The notes beneath the pieces were generated by a model, which was not told where the DNA came from, searched no databases, and worked only from the letters and a program-made list of their open reading frames with translations. Positions 5,027 to 53,901 of a stretch of DNA of 64,000 nucleotides are shown piece by piece; positions within the stretch are counted from its first letter, which is position 1; every line of letters begins with the position of its first letter. The position numbers and the translations under genes were made by a program. The stretch spans positions 2,432,001-2,496,000 of the forward strand of contig OY969695.1 in NCBI GenBank assembly GCA_963701965.1, written 5' to 3'. This stretch comes from an uncultured Gemmatimonadales bacterium. Lineage in GTDB: Bacteria > Gemmatimonadota > Gemmatimonadetes > Gemmatimonadales > Gemmatimonadaceae.

Positions 5027-6435
5027 CCGCGGGGCTCAAACGCACGATGAACATGCGCGACCTGGTGTTGTTCAACCTCGTCGCCGTCATCGGATTGCGT
5101 TGGCTGAACACGGCGGCCAAGTCCGGGCCCTCGTCCATCGTCCTCTGGCTGCTGGCGGCGGTGATGTTCTTCATCCCGCAGGGCCTTGCCGTCGGCGAGC
5201 TCTCGGCGCGCTACCCGAAAGAAGGCGGCATCTACTTCTGGACCCGCCGCCGGTTCGGCGAGGGGCACGGGTTCTTCTGCGGCTGGTGCTATTGGGTAGT
5301 GAACGTCCTCTACTACCCACAGCTCCTGCTCTCGGGCGCCGTCATCGTGCTGTTCGTGTTCGGCAAAGGCGACTCGGGACTCGCCGAGAGCTGGCCCTAC
5401 GTGCTGACCGCCTGCACGCTGATGCTGTGGTTTGCCGTGGCGCTCAACGTGGTGGGGCTGGGCACCGGGAAGTGGCTGCAAAACCTCGGCGGCATCGGGA
5501 CGTACGGGGCGGGCGTGATCGTGCTGCTCGTCGGCATCTATGCGATGTTCACCCATCCGAGCGCCAATCCGATCACGGCGCGCGCCCTCGTGCCCAATTT
5601 CGGCTCGTTCACCGAGGTGAATCTCTGGGCCACGATCGCGTTCGCGTTCGCCGGCCTCGAGCTCGCGGCGACCCTGGGCGACGAGATCCAGGACGCCGGG
5701 CACGCGTTGCCGCGCTCCACGTACATCTCGGCGCCCTTGATCGCGGGGATCTACGTCCTGGGCACGGTGTGCGTGTTGTGGCTCGTGCCCGTCGATTCCC
5801 TCAAGCTGACGTCGGGATTTCTGCAAGCGATCGAGATCGGCGCGCAGCGCCTGTGGTGGCTGGCGCCGCTGGCCGCCGCGGCGTACACCGTCGGCAACAT
5901 CGGGGGCGCCGGTGCCTGGCTCGCCGGGCCCGCGCGCGTGGCGTTCATGATCGGCCTCGACCGGTATCTCCCTCGGGCCTTCGGGCGCATCCATCCCCAA
6001 TGGGGCACGCCGTACGTCGCCATCATCGTGCAAGCGGCCATCGCCACGCTCGTGCTGCCGCTGGCAGCCATGAGTAACGGGGCGTCGGGACATGGCACGA
6101 CGGTCGAGCAGGTGTACCTCGACATTCTCGACGCACAGCTCCTCATCTACTTCGTCCCGTTCATCTATCTGTTCTGCTGTCTCTTGCTGGAGCGCGACAC
6201 CGATCGCGCCGGCATGGCGAAATCCGTGATCCCCGGCGGCACGTTCGGCCGCGTCCTCACCGCCACGTCGGGCCTCTTCGTCACTGTATTCGCCATGGTC
6301 GTCGCCGCGATCCCCCCGTCGGACCAGGACCCCTTACTCTTCGAGCTCAAGGTCGTCGGCGGGGCGATGGTGTTTTATCTCGTCGGATACGGCTTCTACT
6401 GGCACGGCGCCCGGACCCGGGTCCCATTATCATGA
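5023..6435 (+). CDS. APC family amino acid/polyamine permease
   Basis: About 12 hydrophobic segments, EGGIYFW, FAFAGLE, HPQWGTPY; ATGA overlaps on both sides. Confidence 0.88.
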   Translation: MTAGLKRTMNMRDLVLFNLVAVIGLRWLNTAAKSGPSSIVLWLLAAVMFFIPQGLAVGELSARYPKEGGIYFWTRRRFGEGHGFFCGWCYWVVNVLYYPQLLLSGAVIVLFVFGKGDSGLAESWPYVLTACTLMLWFAVALNVVGLGTGKWLQNLGGIGTYGAGVIVLLVGIYAMFTHPSANPITARALVPNFGSFTEVNLWATIAFAFAGLELAATLGDEIQDAGHALPRSTYISAPLIAGIYVLGTVCVLWLVPVDSLKLTSGFLQAIEIGAQRLWWLAPLAAAAYTVGNIGGAGAWLAGPARVAFMIGLDRYLPRAFGRIHPQWGTPYVAIIVQAAIATLVLPLAAMSNGASGHGTTVEQVYLDILDAQLLIYFVPFIYLFCCLLLERDTDRAGMAKSVIPGGTFGRVLTATSGLFVTVFAMVVAAIPPSDQDPLLFELKVVGGAMVFYLVGYGFYWHGARTRVPLS

Positions 6436-9011
6436 AACGCTGGTCGCTCCTGGCCCTCTGCCTCGCGGCACCGGTGAGCGCGCAGCGCGAGCCCGTGCTC
6501 GAGCAGATCGTGCTGCCGCACGCGTACTACTATCGCGAGATGTACCTCCCCCAGGTGACGAGCGGACCGAGCACGGTCACGTGGTCGCCCGATGGGCAGA
6601 GCGTGATCTACTCGATGCAGGGCTCGCTCTGGCGTCAGCGCCTGGGCACAACGGAAGCCGAGCAGCTGACGGCGGGTCCCGGGTACGACTTTCAGCCGGA
6701 CTGGTCGCCCGACGGCCGGTCGGTGGTCTACGTGTCCTATCGCGGCGACGCCGAGGAGCTGCGGTTGCTGGACCTGGCGAGCGGCGACGATCATCCGCTC
6801 ACGGTCAACGGCGCCGTCAACGTCGACCCGCGCTGGTCGCCCGACGGATCGCGCCTGGCGTTCGTGTCCACGGTCTATCAGGGCCGCTTTCACATCTACG
6901 TCGCGACCATCAAGACAGGACAGCTCGACGCCGTTCGCCGCGTCACCGAGGACCACGACAGTCATCTGCCGCGCTACTACTACTCGGTATTCGACCACTA
7001 CCTCTCACCGACGTGGTCGCCGGACGGCGCCGAGCTCCTGTTCGTCTCCAACCGCGGGCACGTGTGGGGCACGGGTGGTCTGTGGCGGGCGCCGGCCGAC
7101 AGCGGCCCGGCCGACCGCGCACGGCAGATCCCGGCGCAGCCGGGATCAGTCCAACCGACTTCGGATCTCGCGACGCGAAGCGTCGAGATCCGGAACGAAG
7201 AGACGGCCTGGAAGCCGCATCCCGACTGGTCGCGCGACGGGCATCGCGTAGTCTATAGCTCGTTCGCCGGCCGGCAGTGGAACCAGCTGTGGCTGACGAC
7301 GCCGAACGGCGACTTTCCCGTGCAGCTGACCTACGGCGACTTCGACGCCACGGTGCCCCGGTGGTCGCCGGACGGCGGCCGGATTGCGTTCATCGCCAAC
7401 GAGGGTGGCAACACATCGCTGCGCATCGTCGCCGTCCCGGGTGGTGCGGTCTCCATCGTCACGGCCAAGCAACGCCATTACAAGGGAGCGGTCGGCGTGC
7501 TCCGCGTCATGGTGCGCGATGCGACCGGCCATCCGATGCCTGGCCGCGTCTCGGTCTCGGGCCGTGGCGATCGCACCTACGCCCCGGACGACGCCTGGCG
7601 TTACGCCGACGACTCGTTCGACCGCAAAACGCGGCGCCTGGAGATCGGATACTTCCAGACCACCGGCGCGTCGGTGCTCACCGTTCCCGCCGAGAGCGTC
7701 ACCGTCGATGTGTCGCGCGGCCTCGAGTATCGTCCGGCGCATCGCCGCGTCGCCATCAAGCCCGGCGACACGACGACCGTGGTCGTGGGGCTCCCCCGTA
7801 TGGCCAACCTCCCGCCGGAGGGTTGGTACAGCGGCGACCTTCACGTGCACATGAACTACGGGGGCACGTATCGGAACACGACCGCGCATCTCGCCGAGCA
7901 GGCGCGCGCCGAGGACGTGCACGTCATCGAAGACTTGATCGTGAACAAGGAGGGGCGCATCCCCGACGTGGGGTCGTTCATTCCCGGCGGGCGCGCCGAT
8001 CCGGCGAGCGACGCCAACACGCTCATCGTCCACGGCCAGGAATTTCACACCAGCTACTGGGGCCACGCCGGCCTGTTGGGTCTTCGGTCGTCGCTGATCC
8101 TGCCCGGCTACGCCGCGTACGCGTCGACCCCGGTCGCGAGCCTCGTGCCCACCAACGCCGACGTCGCGGGCATGGCCCACGCCGACCGCGCGCTGCTTGG
8201 CTACGTGCACCCGTTCGACGTCTACCCCGATCCCGCGGATATGGGCACGGCGCTGACCGATGAGCTACCCGTCGATGTCGCTTTGGGCGCCGTAGACTAT
8301 ATGGAGATCGTCGGGTTCAGCGATCATTTGTCGACCGCCCGCGTATGGTATCAGCTGTTGAATTGCGGGTTTCGTCTCCCCGCGGGCGCGGGCACCGACG
8401 CGATGGCCAACTACGCGTCGCTCCGCGGGCCGGTCGGTCTCAACCGCGTCTTCGTCCACGCCGGCTCGGCTCTCTGGCACGGCGCCTGGCTCGACTCGCT
8501 CAAGGCCGGCCGCTCCTTCGCCACGAACGGCCCGCTCCTCACCCTCACGATCGACGGACACGCGATCGGCGATGAGATCAAGGTCGCCGGCCCGACGACG
8601 CTGCACATCCATGCGACGCTGGCATCGATCGTGAGCGTCGACCATTTCGAGCTCGTGGGCCCGAGCGGTGTCGTGGCCAGCGTGGCGCTGACGGGCGACC
8701 GCACGACGGCGACCGCGGACTGGACGGTGACCGACTCGACCAGCGCCTGGTATACGGTGCGCGCGTACGCCGATCACGCGGCCGATCCGGCGTATCCGAT
8801 CCTGGACACCTACCCGTTCGCGACGACGAGTCCCATCTACGTGACCGTCGCCAACCGGCCAATGCGCTCGCCGCGCGATGCCCAGTATTTCGCCGCCTGG
8901 ATCGCGCGGCTCGCGGCCGGCGCGCGGAACTACACCGGGTACAACACGCCTGCCGAGCGGGCGCATGTGCTGGCCCAACTCGACTCGGCCGCTGCCGTCT
9001 TTGGTCATTGA
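6432..9011 (+). CDS. Secreted TolB/PD40 beta-propeller + PHP-like (CehA/McbA-type) metallohydrolase
   Basis: Signal peptide, repeated WSPDG motifs, SGDLHVH, GQEFHT..GH, YVHP, GAGTD, SFATNGP. Confidence 0.8.
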   Translation: MKRWSLLALCLAAPVSAQREPVLEQIVLPHAYYYREMYLPQVTSGPSTVTWSPDGQSVIYSMQGSLWRQRLGTTEAEQLTAGPGYDFQPDWSPDGRSVVYVSYRGDAEELRLLDLASGDDHPLTVNGAVNVDPRWSPDGSRLAFVSTVYQGRFHIYVATIKTGQLDAVRRVTEDHDSHLPRYYYSVFDHYLSPTWSPDGAELLFVSNRGHVWGTGGLWRAPADSGPADRARQIPAQPGSVQPTSDLATRSVEIRNEETAWKPHPDWSRDGHRVVYSSFAGRQWNQLWLTTPNGDFPVQLTYGDFDATVPRWSPDGGRIAFIANEGGNTSLRIVAVPGGAVSIVTAKQRHYKGAVGVLRVMVRDATGHPMPGRVSVSGRGDRTYAPDDAWRYADDSFDRKTRRLEIGYFQTTGASVLTVPAESVTVDVSRGLEYRPAHRRVAIKPGDTTTVVVGLPRMANLPPEGWYSGDLHVHMNYGGTYRNTTAHLAEQARAEDVHVIEDLIVNKEGRIPDVGSFIPGGRADPASDANTLIVHGQEFHTSYWGHAGLLGLRSSLILPGYAAYASTPVASLVPTNADVAGMAHADRALLGYVHPFDVYPDPADMGTALTDELPVDVALGAVDYMEIVGFSDHLSTARVWYQLLNCGFRLPAGAGTDAMANYASLRGPVGLNRVFVHAGSALWHGAWLDSLKAGRSFATNGPLLTLTIDGHAIGDEIKVAGPTTLHIHATLASIVSVDHFELVGPSGVVASVALTGDRTTATADWTVTDSTSAWYTVRAYADHAADPAYPILDTYPFATTSPIYVTVANRPMRSPRDAQYFAAWIARLAAGARNYTGYNTPAERAHVLAQLDSAAAVFGH
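7126..7191 (+). repeat. Hairpin-linker-hairpin element, in-frame intragenic copy
   Basis: GATCCCGGC-GCA-GCCGGGATC, then AGTCCAACCGACT, then GGATCT(CG)CGACGC-GAA-GCGTCGAGATCC; 44/47 nt identical to the copies at 46528 and 46597. Confidence 0.9.
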
Positions 9012-43589: not shown

Positions 43590-46500
43590 ATGGCTCGCCG
43601 AACCAATGCGCTGACGCCGTTTCATCCGCTCGTCCAGCGCTGGTTCCGGGACACGCTCGGGAGCCCGAGCGCGCCGCAAGAGCGCGGCTGGCCCGCCATC
43701 GCGTTGGGCGAGCATACGCTGATTCTGGCGCCGACGGGCACCGGCAAGACGCTGGCGGCGTTTTTGTGGGAACTGAACGCGCTGATCGTCCGCGGGGCCG
43801 AGTCGCCCCTGCCGAACGCGGTCCAGATCCTCTACATCTCGCCCCTCAAGGCACTGGGCAATGATGTGCAGCGGAACCTCGACCGCCCGCTGGCCGACCT
43901 GCGCGCGCGATTCGCCGCGGCCGGCGAGACGTTTCCCGAGATCCGCGTCAATGTCCGGACGGGCGACACGTCGCCCTCGGCCCGCGCGCGGATGCTCCGG
44001 CGCACCCCGCACATTCTGATCACGACGCCCGAGTCCCTGCACATCTTGCTCACCACCGAGCGCGGCCGCACGATCTTCCCCGGCGTGCGCGCCGTCATCG
44101 TCGACGAGATTCACGCGGTCGCCGGCGGCAAGCGCGGCGCGCACCTCGCGCTCACGCTCGAGCGCCTCGATGCGCTGTGCCTCGGCGCCGGCTACAATGC
44201 GCCACAGCGGATCGGCCTCTCCGCCACGCAACGACCGCTCAATGAAGTCGCGCGCTTTCTCGGCGGCGCCGGCGATGACGGACGCTTTCGACCGGTCACC
44301 GTCGTGGACTGCGGACTCGTCAAGAAAATGGAGTTCACCGTGCAGTCGCCGGTGCCCGATCTCGGCGACGTCGGTGGGACGGTCTGGCCCGCCGTCACGG
44401 AGTTGCTCCTGGCGCGCATCCGCGAGGCCCGCACCACGCTCGTGTTCGTGAACAACCGCGGGCAGGCCGAGCGAGTGGCCGTGCGCATCAATGCGCTGGC
44501 CAACGAGGAGCCGGGCTCCGAGCTCGCCAGACCGTATCACGGGTCGCTGTCCAAAGAGCGACGCCTCGCGCTGGAGCGCGCGCTCAAGGCCGGCGAGCTC
44601 CGGGCGCTGGTCACCACCAGCGCGCTGGAGCTGGGCATCGACATCGGCTCCGTCGATCTCGTCGTCCAGATCCAAAGCCCCAAACGCGTCGCCGCCGCCG
44701 TGCAGCGCGCGGGCCGCGCCGGCCACTCGGTGGGCGACGTCAGTCGCGCGGTCTTCGTGCCGACGTTTCGCGATGACCTCATCGAGACGCTCGCCATCGT
44801 CGACGCGGCCCGGGAAGGCGACGTCGAGGCCACCGTCGTCCCGCAGAACGCGCTCGACGTGCTGGCGCAGGTCATCGTGGCCGTCACCTCCACGCCGATC
44901 GAGGGCACGACCGACGAAGCGCTGTATCAGCTCGTGCGCCGCGCCTACCCGTATCATCGCTTGCCCCGGGCGGCGTTCGATGAGACCCTCGCCATGCTCA
45001 GCGGCAAGTATCCGTCCGACGTGGCCGCCGAGCTGGAGCCGCGGCTCACGTGGGATCGCATCACCGGACGCGTCACGGGGTCGCGCGGCAGCCGCATGAC
45101 CGCGGTCATCTCCGGTGGCACCATCCCGGACCGGGGTCTCTATACTGTCAACCTTCCAGACCGCACGCGGCTCGGAGAGCTCGACGAGGAGTTCGTGCAC
45201 GAGTCGCGCGTCGGCGACGTGTTCCAACTCGGCTCCGCGACCTGGCGCATCGGGTCGATCGAGCACGATCGCGTCATCGTGACGCCGGCACCCGGCGCGC
45301 CGGCGCGGATGCCGTTCTGGCACGGCGAGTTCTCGACGCGCGGCGTCGCGGTCAGCCAGCGCGTCGGCGCGTTGCGCCGGGCGTTGACGGTGGCCGCGGA
45401 GACCGACGACGCCGCCTTCGCCGCCGCCAACGGCTGCGACGAGGCGTGCGCCCGCTCGGCGCGCGAATACATCGCGGCGCAACGCGCCGCGACCGGCATC
45501 GTCCCGGACGATCGCACGTTGGTGGTCGAGTGGTTCCGCGACGAAGTGGATTCGGTCCGCGTGGTGATCCATGCCAGCGTCGGCGGGCGCGTGACCGCGC
45601 CCTGGGGCATGGCATTGGCCCGGCGCGCGCGCGACCTCCTCGGCGTCAATGTCGCGGTGCAAACCAACGACGACGGCATCATGCTGCGCCTGCCGCCGCT
45701 CAACGGGCCGCCGCCCATCCGCGCGTTGCTGGCGCAGACGCCGGACGAGGTGGAGCGGGCCGTGCTCGACGAGGTGGGAACGACTCCGTTGTTCGGGGCG
45801 CGGTTCCGGATGAACGCGGCGCGCGCCCTCCTGCTGCCGCGGGGCACGGCGCGGCGGCGCATGCCCCTCTGGCTCCAACGACTCAAAGCCACCGATCTCC
45901 TGCAGGCCGTGCGGGCCTACCCCGAGTTTCCCATCCTCGTGGAGACCTATCGCGAAGTCCTGCGCAATGCGTTCGACATGGACGCGTTGACCGCTGTCGT
46001 CCGGGCGGTCGACGGCGGGCAGCTCGGGCTCCGCATCGTGGAGACGGACCGGCCGTCGCCCTTTGCGTCCGGGCTCTTGCTCGGCTTCGTGATGGACTGG
46101 TTGTACGCCGACGACACGCCGCGCGCCGAGCGGGCCGCGGCGCTGTTGGCCGTCGACCGGGGCATGCTCGACGACGTCATGGGAGTCGACGACACCGTCG
46201 ACGAGGCGACCATGCGGGCCATCGACAATGTGCTCGCCATGCGCCGGGGGACCGCGACCGGGCGGCAGGCGCGTACCGCGGACGAGTTGGCGCATCGGCT
46301 GGAGCGGGCCGGAGATCTGACGCGGGACGAGTTGGTCGCCCGGGAAGCGCCGGACTCGGGCGCACTGCGCGCGCTCCTCGCCTCGAGCCGCGTCGTCGTT
46401 GCCCGCGTCGGCGGGGACGGTAGCGACGGGAGCGCGGACGCCGAGCGGTATATCCTTGCCGAGTATCGCCCGCAATACGATACGGCGAGCGGCGGCGAAG

Positions 46501-48170
46501 GCGCGTCGATGCGCGCAGCGCGGCGAGAGATCCCGGCGCAGCCGGGATCAGTTCAACCGACTCTGGATCTCGCGTCGACGCGCGCAGCGCGACGAGAGAT
46601 CCCGGCGCAGCCGGGATCAGTTCAACCGACTCTGGATCTCGCGTCGACGCGCGCAGCGCGACGCGAGATTTTTGCTCGCTATCTCGCGCTCTCCGGCCCG
46701 GTGACGGTCAATGACGTAGCGGCACGCTATCCGTATCCGCGTCAGTGGATCGCCGCGCGCCTCGCCGAGTGGGAGCGCGCCGGCACGCTGGTGCGGGGCC
46801 GATTTCGGCCGGGCGTCGTCGAGCCGCAGTGGTGCTCCCGCCGCGTGGTGGACCGCGCGCGGCGGCGGGCGCTGGCGGCGCTCCGGGCCGAGATCGAAGC
46901 CACCGACCTCGCGACCTTCGCTGCGTTTCTCCAACGCTGGCAGCACATCGATCCCCGCGACCACCTCGATGGCGAGGCCGGCCTGGCGACGCTGCTGGAG
47001 CAGCTCGACGGTCTGGCCCGACCGGCCGCCGGCTGGGAGCGCGACTATCTCCCCTCCCGCCTCGCGCACTACGACCCCGCGTGGCTGGCGCGCCTCATGA
47101 GCGCGGGCACGCTCGTATGGGCCGGCGCGAACTTGGGCCGGATCCGGTTTTTCGAGCGCGGCGAAGGGGACCTCTGGTCCCGCGCCGTCGACGCGCCGCT
47201 ATCCGAGACCGCCGTCCAAGTGCGCGACACCCTCGCCCGCCTGGGCGCATCGTTCCTCGCCGATCTCGCGACAGAGACTGGCAAGACCCCCCTCAACGTC
47301 AAAGACGCGCTGCGGGAGCTGGTGGCGGCCGGCATCGCGACCAACGACACCGCCGAGGCCATGCGCGAGATCGTGCGGATGCCCGCGCTGCCGGGGCGCG
47401 CGCGGCGCGACGAGCCCGATCCCACGCGCTGGCTCCCCGCCGGCTTCACGCCGCGGCCCGTCGTGCAGCGTCGGGTCAGCGCCCGCCGGCTTCCCCGGTG
47501 GCAGCGCCCCGACCGTCCCGGCCGCGCCGCGGCCTCGGGTTGGATCGGCCGGTGGTCGTTGCTCGACACGCCCGGCACCCGCGGTCCCGCCCTCGACGAG
47601 GAGACCCGCGCGGCCGCGATCGCCGAGCGGTGGCTGGCGCGCTATGGCATCGTGACCCGCGACTGGTGGCGCCGCGAACGGCCTCCCGTGTCGTGGCGCG
47701 CGATCTATCGCGAGCTCCGGCGTCTCGAGCTCCGGGGCGAAGTCCGGCGCGGGTATTTCGTCACCGGCCTGGCCGGAGCGCAGTTCGCCGCGCCCGAGGC
47801 GGTCGAGCGGCTGCGCGCGGCCCGCGACGATCCCAATGCGCCGTTCGTGCTCATGGCCGCGAGCGACCCGGCCCATCCCGATGTCCTCCCGCGTCCCCGC
47901 GGCGCCAGCGCGCTCATCGTGACGCGGCGCGGGATCACGGTCATGACGGTCGAAGGCGCGGGACGGCGCGTGACCATCATGGCGCCGCTGACGGAGCCCG
48001 AAGTCGCCGGGATCGCCGCGCAGTTGGCGGCCCGACACCCGGGGCGGTCGGCGACGCGCGAGCTCGAGACCATCGACGGGCGCCCTGCGGCGACGAGTGC
48101 GCACGCGCCGGGGTTTCTGCGCGCGGGATTCCGGAACGACGGTCTCGCGCTCGCCTACCCGGTCGGTTGA
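43590..48170 (+). CDS. lhr: Lhr DEAD/H-box helicase, long form with C-terminal winged-helix/glycosylase-like region
   Basis: APTGTGKT, SPLKAL, TTPESL, DEIH, GLSAT, LELGIDIG, QRAGRAGH, GELDEEFVHE, RRGYFV..GAQFA. Confidence 0.93.
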   Translation: MARRTNALTPFHPLVQRWFRDTLGSPSAPQERGWPAIALGEHTLILAPTGTGKTLAAFLWELNALIVRGAESPLPNAVQILYISPLKALGNDVQRNLDRPLADLRARFAAAGETFPEIRVNVRTGDTSPSARARMLRRTPHILITTPESLHILLTTERGRTIFPGVRAVIVDEIHAVAGGKRGAHLALTLERLDALCLGAGYNAPQRIGLSATQRPLNEVARFLGGAGDDGRFRPVTVVDCGLVKKMEFTVQSPVPDLGDVGGTVWPAVTELLLARIREARTTLVFVNNRGQAERVAVRINALANEEPGSELARPYHGSLSKERRLALERALKAGELRALVTTSALELGIDIGSVDLVVQIQSPKRVAAAVQRAGRAGHSVGDVSRAVFVPTFRDDLIETLAIVDAAREGDVEATVVPQNALDVLAQVIVAVTSTPIEGTTDEALYQLVRRAYPYHRLPRAAFDETLAMLSGKYPSDVAAELEPRLTWDRITGRVTGSRGSRMTAVISGGTIPDRGLYTVNLPDRTRLGELDEEFVHESRVGDVFQLGSATWRIGSIEHDRVIVTPAPGAPARMPFWHGEFSTRGVAVSQRVGALRRALTVAAETDDAAFAAANGCDEACARSAREYIAAQRAATGIVPDDRTLVVEWFRDEVDSVRVVIHASVGGRVTAPWGMALARRARDLLGVNVAVQTNDDGIMLRLPPLNGPPPIRALLAQTPDEVERAVLDEVGTTPLFGARFRMNAARALLLPRGTARRRMPLWLQRLKATDLLQAVRAYPEFPILVETYREVLRNAFDMDALTAVVRAVDGGQLGLRIVETDRPSPFASGLLLGFVMDWLYADDTPRAERAAALLAVDRGMLDDVMGVDDTVDEATMRAIDNVLAMRRGTATGRQARTADELAHRLERAGDLTRDELVAREAPDSGALRALLASSRVVVARVGGDGSDGSADAERYILAEYRPQYDTASGGEGASMRAARREIPAQPGSVQPTLDLASTRAARREIPAQPGSVQPTLDLASTRAARREIFARYLALSGPVTVNDVAARYPYPRQWIAARLAEWERAGTLVRGRFRPGVVEPQWCSRRVVDRARRRALAALRAEIEATDLATFAAFLQRWQHIDPRDHLDGEAGLATLLEQLDGLARPAAGWERDYLPSRLAHYDPAWLARLMSAGTLVWAGANLGRIRFFERGEGDLWSRAVDAPLSETAVQVRDTLARLGASFLADLATETGKTPLNVKDALRELVAAGIATNDTAEAMREIVRMPALPGRARRDEPDPTRWLPAGFTPRPVVQRRVSARRLPRWQRPDRPGRAAASGWIGRWSLLDTPGTRGPALDEETRAAAIAERWLARYGIVTRDWWRRERPPVSWRAIYRELRRLELRGEVRRGYFVTGLAGAQFAAPEAVERLRAARDDPNAPFVLMAASDPAHPDVLPRPRGASALIVTRRGITVMTVEGAGRRVTIMAPLTEPEVAGIAAQLAARHPGRSATRELETIDGRPAATSAHAPGFLRAGFRNDGLALAYPVG
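46503..46669 (+). repeat. 69-bp tandem repeat (2.4 copies) of the hairpin-linker-hairpin element inside lhr
   Basis: Units 46503-571 and 46572-640, partial unit 46641-669; each encodes ASxRAARREIPAQPGSVQPTLDL; 11-bp inverted repeat at 46636-46 / 46659-69. Confidence 0.95.
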
Positions 48171-48194
48171 ACCAGGCTCCGCCTGCGCGGAACT
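48161..48194 (-). repeat. Partial copy of the element at the lhr stop
   Basis: Minus strand: GTTCCGC-GCAG-GCGGAGC, then GGTTCAACCGACC; second hairpin not clear. Confidence 0.6.
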
Positions 48195-48683
48195 CTACGC
48201 GGGCGGGACGAGGTTGCCGCAGACGAGCGGCGGCGCGCCCGCCGGCGCCGACTCCACCCGCACGAAATACTGGCCGTTCGTCGGAAAGCCCAGTGGGATG
48301 ATGGCATAGTCCGACACCCTCCCCGTCGTGTCGGCCTCCAACAGTCGATACACGCTTGGGGGGCCGAACACGCCGAGGTCCCGGTCGCATTTGCCCTGGT
48401 GCACGCGCCAGGCGTATACGCCAGGGCTCGCGCGGCGCACGTCGATCCGCACGCGGATCGAGTGGTTGTCCGACGCGCCCGCCGCCATCCAGGCGATCCC
48501 ATACGGACCAGCGGTGGTGTCGCCGGCGGTGTCCTCCGGGGACCACAACGTCGCGTTCCAGCGCGTAGTCGAGGGGGGGTCCGGCTGCGGCGTGACCGCG
48601 TGCCGCGCACGGCGCATGAGTCCGCAGCCGAGACCGGACACCGATGCGACGAAAGCGATCCATGGGGGGCACAATCGGAACAT
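48195..48683 (-). CDS. Hypothetical lipoprotein (Cu/Zn-SOD-like or CHRD-like fold possible)
   Basis: GLGC lipobox-like, YAWRVHQGKC..LVCGNL. Confidence 0.55.
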   Translation of the reverse strand: MFRLCPPWIAFVASVSGLGCGLMRRARHAVTPQPDPPSTTRWNATLWSPEDTAGDTTAGPYGIAWMAAGASDNHSIRVRIDVRRASPGVYAWRVHQGKCDRDLGVFGPPSVYRLLEADTTGRVSDYAIIPLGFPTNGQYFVRVESAPAGAPPLVCGNLVPPA

Positions 48684-53769: not shown

Positions 53770-53808
53770 GGCGTTTTGAGGCTAGAGCCGTAAAGAGTGC
53801 AGCGGAGG

Positions 53809-53878
53809 AGCTCTCGGCGCAGCCGAGAGCTGTCCAACCGACTGCCTCTCACGGGTGCGTCAGCACCCAATGAGAGGC
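53809..53878 (+). repeat. Hairpin-linker-hairpin element, intergenic copy
   Basis: AGCTCTCGGC-GCA-GCCGAGAGCT, then GTCCAACCGACT, then GCCTCTCA(C)GGGTGC-GTCA-GCACCC(AA)TGAGAGGC. Confidence 0.85.
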
Positions 53879-53901
53879 CCCTCAGAGAGAGGACGTCCCG
53901 C

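Follow-up and report, generated by a model that had tools for sequence, protein, structure and literature searches.

The 60 nucleotides (nt) at positions 7125-7184 of the DNA analysed here (hereafter the window: a stretch of 64,000 nt from contig OY969695.1 of an uncultured Gemmatimonadales bacterium) were identified by protein and codon alignments as an insertion in the gene for a beta-propeller hydrolase. With a probability of roughly 80%, this segment is one copy of a genus-restricted, dispersed repeat composed of two hairpins, which lies in frame in the propeller domain and adds residues that are likely tolerated, not useful. For selfish DNA as a source of new protein sequence, in-frame palindromic insertions are the textbook example, best known from Rickettsia. 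Selfish DNA inside genes is a known phenomenon; the repeat family and the bacterial group are new. The features of the host gene are as follows.

6432..9011, plus strand: host gene, an open reading frame (ORF) of 859 amino acids (aa), intact across the insert.
7125..7184, plus strand: inserted block, 60 nt or 20 codons, QIPAQPGSVQPTSDLATRSV, placed by protein and codon alignments.
7126..7131, plus strand: AGATCC direct repeat, left copy, with which the repeat unit also begins.
7186..7191, plus strand: right copy of AGATCC, within the codons GAG ATC C.

The host protein combines a TolB-like PD40 beta-propeller (Pfam PD40, 7e-33, three stretches) with a CehA/McbA-type metallohydrolase part, and its N-terminus, MKRWSLLALCLAAPVSA, was signal-peptide-like when read by eye. 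Its homologues showed 58-74% identity over 97-100% of the length and carried the source names 'TolB protein' or 'CehA/McbA family metallohydrolase' from Gemmatimonadales or Gemmatimonadaceae. An initial annotation of the sequence had reported two AGATCC repeats at 7126 and 7186 inside the ORF, and these were found exactly as described, 60 nt apart, with the translation ...ADRARQIPAQPGSVQPTSDLATRSVEIRNEET... across both copies. The 20-residue gap that it anticipated in orthologues was also found. The segment was absent from all ten full-length orthologues from the same genus, family and order, and from all 119 database homologues, which have three residues where the query has 25. These homologues were the 120 best proteins of a 5.8-billion-protein collection, reduced to 119 by removal of the window's own, and the segment in distant orthologues, which the annotation had named as evidence against an insertion, did not occur among them. 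One detail had to be revised. Removal of the block had been said to give RARQI-RNEET; homologues read (A/G)R-EIRxEET at the site, and the best placement is 7125-7184 because the R-EIRxEET of the orthologues is then restored as R-EIRNEET. The flanking repeat lets the block be drawn up to 7 nt further right. The orthologues carry the codons CGC GAG ATT CAC or AGC GAG ATC AGG at the empty site; since they have GAG ATT or GAG ATC there, the right-hand GAGATCC most likely predates the insertion. No match to a 33-nt stretch of the insert turned up when the window was shuffled 100 times, and the best match of the whole copy to any other locus was 56/60.

A repeat wrongly placed in the gene during assembly or consensus building is hardly credible as an explanation. 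The assembly has the look of a metagenome-type product, repeats are error-prone, and two public runs cover only parts of 6500-7800, leaving the 3' junction and most of the insert outside their coverage. However, a 267-nt contig of public run X1, possibly from the same sample as the assembly, matched 6891-7157 with 0 differences and thus crosses the 5' junction, with 234 nt before and 32 nt after it. The length of the block is also a multiple of three, and seven other genes carry the same clean in-frame insertion.

Folding of the 7125-7184 copy revealed two hairpins, with an RNA energy of -42 kcal/mol (z -5.35) and a DNA energy of -25.4 kcal/mol (z -5.14). The order of the unit is hairpin 1, an invariant core GTYCAACCGAY and hairpin 2, which at this locus occupy the following positions.

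7127..7147, plus strand: hairpin 1, with a 9-bp stem and a 3-nt loop, from folding and from covariation in 43 copies.
7149..7159, plus strand: GTCCAACCGAC, the conserved core, unpaired and characteristic of the repeat family as a whole.
7160..7194, plus strand: hairpin 2, whose 3' arm reaches into host sequence at 7185-7194.

Hairpin 1 was examined in 43 distinct copies from this genome and five congeners, collected with a pattern that fixed only the top three stem pairs. Paired bases filled 91% of the cells, and seven of the nine pairs had changed on both sides; none of 500 shuffles reached this level, and slid control alignments were only 24-42% paired. The loop measures 5 nt if the closing C-G pair is counted, a single variable base separates the stem from GTYCAACCGAY, and the four columns upstream of the stem were variable in the aligned copies, without a conserved tag. 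Hairpin 2 at 7160..7194 lacks 3 nt that are found in most copies of its subfamily, exactly at the point where the copy joins the GAGATCC of the host. The subfamilies have hairpin 1 and the core in common and carry unrelated second hairpins. The GATC-rich subfamily, to which the insert belongs, has units of 60-69 nt that start and stop with GATC-containing hexamers, contain four GATC sites each and have ends that together form a 9-10 nt inverted repeat. Another subfamily starts and stops with CTAG, and the other subfamilies have no terminal inverted repeat of more than 4 nt.

The genome is a single contig of 5,116,566 bases (67.1% G+C; completeness 94.96%, contamination 4.23%), in which the family comprises about 65-80 copies at about 51 loci. 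Blastn recovered 43 close copies genome-wide, one of which is actually the host-derived part of a repeat block in the lhr gene described below, and a profile of hairpin 1 plus core additionally recovered diverged subfamilies. The 11-mer GTYCAACCGAY occurred 85 times in the genome vs about 8 expected from base composition, and a specific pattern combining loop, spacing and core had 65 matches. Stable hairpins stood on both sides of the core in 82 of 136 relaxed-core matches, a set chosen by fold energy; four of these were dropped as false by eye and 78 were kept. Head-to-tail arrays were common (for example, seven units of 63 nt, six to eight of 62 nt and four of 65-66 nt), and their orientation was strictly head to tail. 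In one of them, at genome positions 2607083-2607536, seven 63-nt units lie between a NIF3-like gene and a gene for an ABC-transporter ATPase and are open antisense in the ATPase frame, forming either an N-terminal extension of the ATPase or an intergenic spacer. The DUF4331 gene beside the 62-nt array (3405693-3407152, minus strand) consists of two overlapping ORFs matching the profile at 131-236 and 243-421, and may be frameshifted.

Taxonomically, the family was found only in this genus among the genomes searched, as judged from pattern matches. All five other genomes of the genus contained real copies (1, 2, 20, 1 and 1), most of these assemblies being fragmented. In 300 other sampled genomes of the phylum, one of them unpublished and without weight in any conclusion, the specific pattern had 0 or 1 match each; the single matches had no hairpin, and reversed-pattern controls matched at a similar rate. 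A stricter pattern, applied to one genome for each of 185,579 species in a scan that may leave out the window's own records, matched at seven places, all in one other Gemmatimonadales genome. None of the 20 element loci in the five same-genus genomes lay in a frame resembling a coding sequence by third-codon-position G+C (GC3) and ORF criteria. An earlier description of such repeats in Gemmatimonadetes was not found in the literature searched, and the RepRanger paper contains no mention of Gemmatimon*, intragenic or RAYT (REP-associated tyrosine transposase). The repeat family, with its covarying hairpin 1, GTYCAACCGAY and second hairpin, appears to be previously undescribed.

Within the genome, the loci of the GATC-rich subfamily were mostly inside ORFs, whereas those of the other subfamilies were mostly intergenic. 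Twenty candidate host ORFs were scanned against Pfam, and 17 had families. For eight hosts, comparison with orthologues showed a copy of the repeat to be an insertion.

Propeller-hydrolase gene: insert absent in 10/10 genome orthologues and 119/119 database homologues.
lhr: insert absent in 3/3 same-genus orthologues.
Pyruvate kinase: 21 residues inside the barrel-domain match; insert absent in 5/5 orthologues.
SNF2 helicase: insert absent in 4/4 orthologues.
MBL-rhodanese protein: insert absent in 4/4 orthologues.
Alpha/beta hydrolase: insert absent in 2/2 orthologues.
Class-I glutamine amidotransferase (GATase): two units; insert absent in 3/3 orthologues.
TMEM260-like membrane protein: antisense copy; insert absent in the 2/2 closest orthologues, with a different loop in three remoter relatives.

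Further hosts were indicated by Pfam alone: a TraG/VirD4 gene with two units between two domain stretches, and a gene with an AlkA_N match. The latter is an Ada/AlkA fusion ORF (genome 2730961-2732922, minus strand), for which the orthologue alignment, at 39-46% identity, was too poor for a gap call. It holds two separate copies, one inside the AlkA_N match and a second close to the 5' end that may precede the true start. DNA repair and helicase functions are represented by several of the hosts (lhr, SNF2, Ada/AlkA), a tendency that Di Nocera et al. (2013, PMC3733652) also remarked for intragenic repetitive extragenic palindromes (REPs) of other phyla.

These hosts translate one and the same DNA in more than one way: as IPAQPGSVQPT.DLATRSVAE, as DPGAAGISPTD.. 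(DPGAAGISPTDPGSRDAERRR), or antisense as ATLRVARS.VGWTD... In-gene copies of the GATC-rich subfamily use two sense frames and, once, the antisense strand, and the 7125-7184 copy is free of stops in five of its six frames. Since the same DNA is read in several frames, conservation is at the DNA level and not at the peptide level. The initial annotation had noted a 47-nt core 44/47 identical to the lhr copies and read in the same frame, which blastn reproduced (93.6% for each lhr unit). It had concluded that two unrelated proteins carry the same peptide; that unrelated proteins have it in common was confirmed, but the number was too low, as there are at least eight verified hosts and three frames. 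Its parallel with Rickettsia palindromic elements (RPEs) holds as a description of behaviour, the same palindromic repeat being in frame in many unrelated genes, and its suggestion of a tolerated insertion in a propeller loop was supported, the loop position by structure prediction.

AlphaFold2, run on a 120-sequence alignment of the host protein, gave a model with a predicted local distance difference test score (pLDDT) of 88.6 and a predicted TM-score (pTM) of 0.90. In this model, residues 222-250 are a coil between strands 216-221 and 251-255, and residues 227-247 have a pLDDT below 50. The extra residues are thus predicted to form a disordered loop between two propeller strands, in a loop that is already variable in length among homologues. 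It might be argued that the 20 residues are instead adaptive, a module that selection in this protein has favoured as a new functional loop, given that the ORF is intact, that all invariant family columns are kept (which follows by construction) and that the insert sits in this variable loop. We regard this as very improbable. The same DNA occurs between genes as well as in proteins that are unrelated, be they cytoplasmic, membrane-bound or exported, and is read there in three frames; moreover, the segment has no structure in the AlphaFold2 model and is absent from every relative. The element would rather be selfish DNA in the manner of RPEs and intragenic REPs, an analogy under which selection would spare the copies that have landed in loops and whose length is divisible by three.

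The window contains further members of the family, most of them in or next to the gene for an lhr-type helicase.

43590..48170, plus strand: lhr-type helicase gene, 1526 aa, with two 69-nt units.
46502..46669, plus strand: whole lhr block, three host segments alternating with two element parts.
46532..46570, plus strand: element-derived part of lhr unit 1, in which hairpin 1 and the core are followed by the beginning of hairpin 2.
46601..46639, plus strand: element-derived part of lhr unit 2.
48122..48197 (genome 2480122-2480197), minus strand: diverged copy, a hairpin followed by GTTCAACCGAC, abutting the lhr stop codon.
53806..53882, plus strand: intergenic copy of the family, in which hairpin 1 is fully compensated and the core is the same, but the second hairpin is unrelated.

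The lhr units match the insert by blastn at window positions 46528 and 46597, and the lhr ORF reads them in the same frame as the propeller host, giving EIPAQPGSVQPTLDLA. Each 69-nt unit consists of 39 nt of element and a 30-nt copy of host sequence. The three host-derived segments of 30 nt (46502-46531, 46571-46600 and 46640-46669) are 90-100% alike and code for S[M/T]RAARREI, and the same-genus lhr orthologues have this segment just once. Given that the diverged minus-strand copy abuts the stop codon, lhr carries the family both inside the gene and at its 3' end.

The junctions offered some indication of how the repeat spreads. The empty sites resembled the GAGATC end of the element in five of six resolved cases, with the codons GAG ATT/ATC in the propeller gene, GAA/GCC ATC CCG in pyruvate kinase, GAR ATK in lhr, GAT CTG/TTT in SNF2 and GAY CTG/TTG in the alpha/beta hydrolase. 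The repeated flank measured 6 nt in the propeller gene vs about 30 nt in lhr, whose units include 28-30 nt of host sequence in duplicate, and the TraG array ends inside hairpin 1. Flanks of such variable length, and the copying of host sequence, are more in keeping with template switching or short-homology recombination than with fixed-end cut-and-paste. We lean, at somewhat less than even odds, towards spread without a dedicated transposase, by a replication- or recombination-type copying at short homology. Template switching, gene conversion or slippage, primed at short homology to the GAGATC end of the element itself, might serve as the copying route, and the same route would also produce head-to-tail arrays. 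A bolder version of this proposal, in which a transposase-free repeat that switches template at GAGATC microhomologies has given rise to a 63-nt stop-free subfamily that colonises coding sequences, mostly in sense, and has made new loops of 20-23 residues in at least eight and perhaps fifteen proteins, including pyruvate kinase, appears unlikely as a whole.

A non-autonomous transposon of the REP type or of the MITE type (miniature inverted-repeat transposable element) is a possible, though doubtful, alternative. Under this explanation, the repeat would owe its movement to a transposase acting in trans, one whose target RGATCY (CTAG in another subfamily) is duplicated and that belongs to a family other than PF01797 or has since been lost. 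The GATC-containing hexamers at the unit ends, the CTAG at the ends of the other subfamily, the 9-10 nt inverted repeat of the GATC-rich subfamily and the dispersal of copies at about 51 loci are all compatible with it; according to the literature, REPs and MITEs are mobilised in trans, and CGTC REPs are without a known transposase (PMC3733652). However, the Y1 transposase/RAYT profile (PF01797) had 0 matches in this single-contig genome, compared with matches in six of 14 control genomes. A self-megablast search for a parent insertion sequence (IS) returned 90 repeat pairs of at least 300 nt, from which eight distinct multi-copy IS-like repeats were inspected, and none had ends or a core matching the hairpin repeat. 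Furthermore, the other subfamilies lack a terminal inverted repeat of more than 4 nt, the junctions vary in length (6 nt in the propeller gene and about 30 nt in lhr, with truncated units in TraG and at 7125-7184) and the arrays are strictly head to tail. No transposase-like gene or nuclease was present among the neighbours of the two largest arrays, which encode TPR, DUF4331, esterase-like, ABC ATPase, permease, NIF3-like, PnrA-like binding and LiaF-like proteins. The IS-like repeats themselves (2.5 kb x5, 1.24 kb x3, 1.47 kb x3 and others; for example, genome 767632-770136, 774795-776036 and 1250953-1252423) are all unrelated to the hairpin repeat.

The distribution of the copies also bears on whether the hairpins are kept for a role at the RNA or DNA level, such as mRNA stability, pausing, nucleoid-protein binding or GATC methylation, with the peptide as a by-product. 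Outside the GATC-rich subfamily, 25 of 28 loci were intergenic by crude gene calls; 22 of these 25 lay between convergent or same-direction genes, several of them 3-15 nt past a gene end, a positioning like that of REPs. In the GATC-rich subfamily, 18 of 23 loci fell within a 1.5-Mb interval (2.0-3.5 Mb) surrounding the putative origin, which is the minimum of the cumulative GC skew at about 2.68 Mb. A bias in replication strand was not clear (15 anti- vs 8 co-oriented loci in the GATC-rich subfamily, 12 vs 16 in the others). Together with the covariation of hairpin 1, the invariance of the core across subfamilies with unrelated second hairpins and the four GATC sites per unit, the intergenic positions and the grouping around the putative origin could be taken to favour such a role. 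We nevertheless consider it improbable, as close relatives are without the element at all eight verified sites and no Rfam family matched. Rfam gave no gathering-level match in the window and none at E<=1 around the insert. At the intergenic copy at 53806..53882 there were just two matches, both of 16.3 bits and below threshold: one to whalefall-1 (E 0.072) and one to naRNA4, a REP-derived nucleoid RNA whose gathering score is 59.5 (E 0.88). Both were taken as chance. Two other candidate identities for the repeats were set aside: a CRISPR array, as the whole 62-69 nt period is conserved and there are no spacers, and attC, dif or parS sites, as no matching partner motifs were seen by eye.

Several points weigh against our interpretation of the insert as a tolerated copy of a selfish repeat spread by copying. 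The loop placement is a prediction, and a low pLDDT is expected for any lineage-specific insert. The site in the MBL-rhodanese gene is without GATC exactly at the junction, and the flanking RGATCY might just as well be a target duplication of 4-6 bp left by a transposase that went unrecognised; the profile search covered one transposase family, PF01797. The copies that entered the fold-energy counts had been selected by fold energy, and the gene calls used for genomic context were crude (GC3 and ORF length), with at least two hosts mis-called. Finally, neither an intermediate nor a polymorphic empty site was seen, and current mobility is not supported; recent activity is likewise not supported, because no two loci hold identical copies, the best inter-locus identity being 61/63.

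Comparison with known repeat systems placed the family closest in behaviour to RPEs and intragenic REPs. RPEs (Ogata et al. 2000, 2002, as cited in PMC10969869 and PMC3733652) are given as about 150 bp long, or about 100-150 bp where length serves as a criterion, form ten families and occur in Rickettsia, an obligate intracellular alphaproteobacterium, and 44 in-frame insertions are reported for R. conorii (PMC10969869). Like RPEs as there described, the present family is a multi-copy palindromic repeat (65 pattern matches, 78 two-hairpin copies) that occurs in frame in unrelated, apparently functional genes (eight hosts by orthologue gaps) and also between genes, is genus-restricted and adds a peptide that the fold is assumed to accommodate. 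A surface or loop position of that peptide is predicted for the propeller host only. In contrast to RPEs, the units here are 60-69 nt long, comprise two different hairpins around an invariant 11-mer and form head-to-tail arrays, and the host has a 5.1-Mb genome and belongs to the Gemmatimonadales group by the names of its homologues. Membership in RPE-1 to RPE-10 is unlikely, as judged by length and host.

Among GTAG and CGTC REPs, some units lie inside ORFs and encode 20-30 residues, sometimes twice per gene (PMC3733652). Short hairpins with stems of 8-9 bp and loops of 3-5 nt, units within ORFs and a prevalence of repair and helicase genes among the hosts (here lhr, SNF2 and Ada/AlkA) are features in common with the present repeats, and CGTC REPs, with stems of 8-9 bp and loops of 4-5 nt, are also without a dedicated transposase, as in this genome, where the stem is 9 bp and no transposase was found. 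However, the present repeats have no GTAG or CGTC tag upstream of the stem and instead carry a conserved 11-mer after it; more specifically, neither a terminal CGTC/TGTC/CCTC tag nor a CCA-like 3-nt tail after the stem was observed. GTAG/CGTC REPs are mostly head-to-head dimers, whereas the present units have two hairpins and are arranged head to tail, and most loci of the GATC-rich subfamily are intragenic. Compared with REPs and bacterial interspersed mosaic elements (BIMEs) associated with RAYTs (REPtrons), which are likewise clustered hairpin repeats that probably act or move as single strands (PMC3733652), the family differs in having no RAYT (0 matches to PF01797), no GTAG tag and no alternating orientation. 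The defining marks of MITEs such as Correia, ERIC and RUP are terminal inverted repeats 15-30 bp in length, duplication of the target and the existence of a parent IS (PMC10969869). The present repeats resemble them in being small, non-coding, dispersed and structured and in being capable of in-frame fusions with host ORFs; however, the inverted ends here measure 9-10 nt in one subfamily and are missing in the others, no parent IS was found, and the flanking RGATCY is indistinguishable from the element's own ends.

The family provides a clean second system of in-frame palindromic insertion, and the genome that carries it is large and comes from a phylum that has been little studied. One of its subfamilies sits mostly inside genes, whereas the sister subfamilies are placed between genes as ordinary REPs are. 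For eight insertion sites, close relatives show the empty counterpart, and the junctions hint at transposase-free copying. This material could be used to examine the movement of the element, the survival of particular lengths and frames, and the tolerance of beta-propellers, TIM-barrel enzymes and helicases to insertion. If the repeat were indeed a transposase-free coloniser of coding sequences, it would make the creation of protein sequence by selfish DNA tractable to observation in a free-living bacterium. In practical terms, segments of 20-23 residues of this kind will confuse orthology assignment, domain calls and structure prediction in this genus.

Other repeats were noted in the course of the analysis. 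Self-comparison of the genome revealed two other tandem-repeat blocks, at 2249755-2250220 and 2591686-2592157, with offsets of 66 nt and 15/60 nt, respectively. In the window, the direct repeats 25128-25258/26803-26933 and 25331-25987/27027-27701, with 73-77% identity and a spacing of about 1.7 kb, look like two adjacent paralogous genes.

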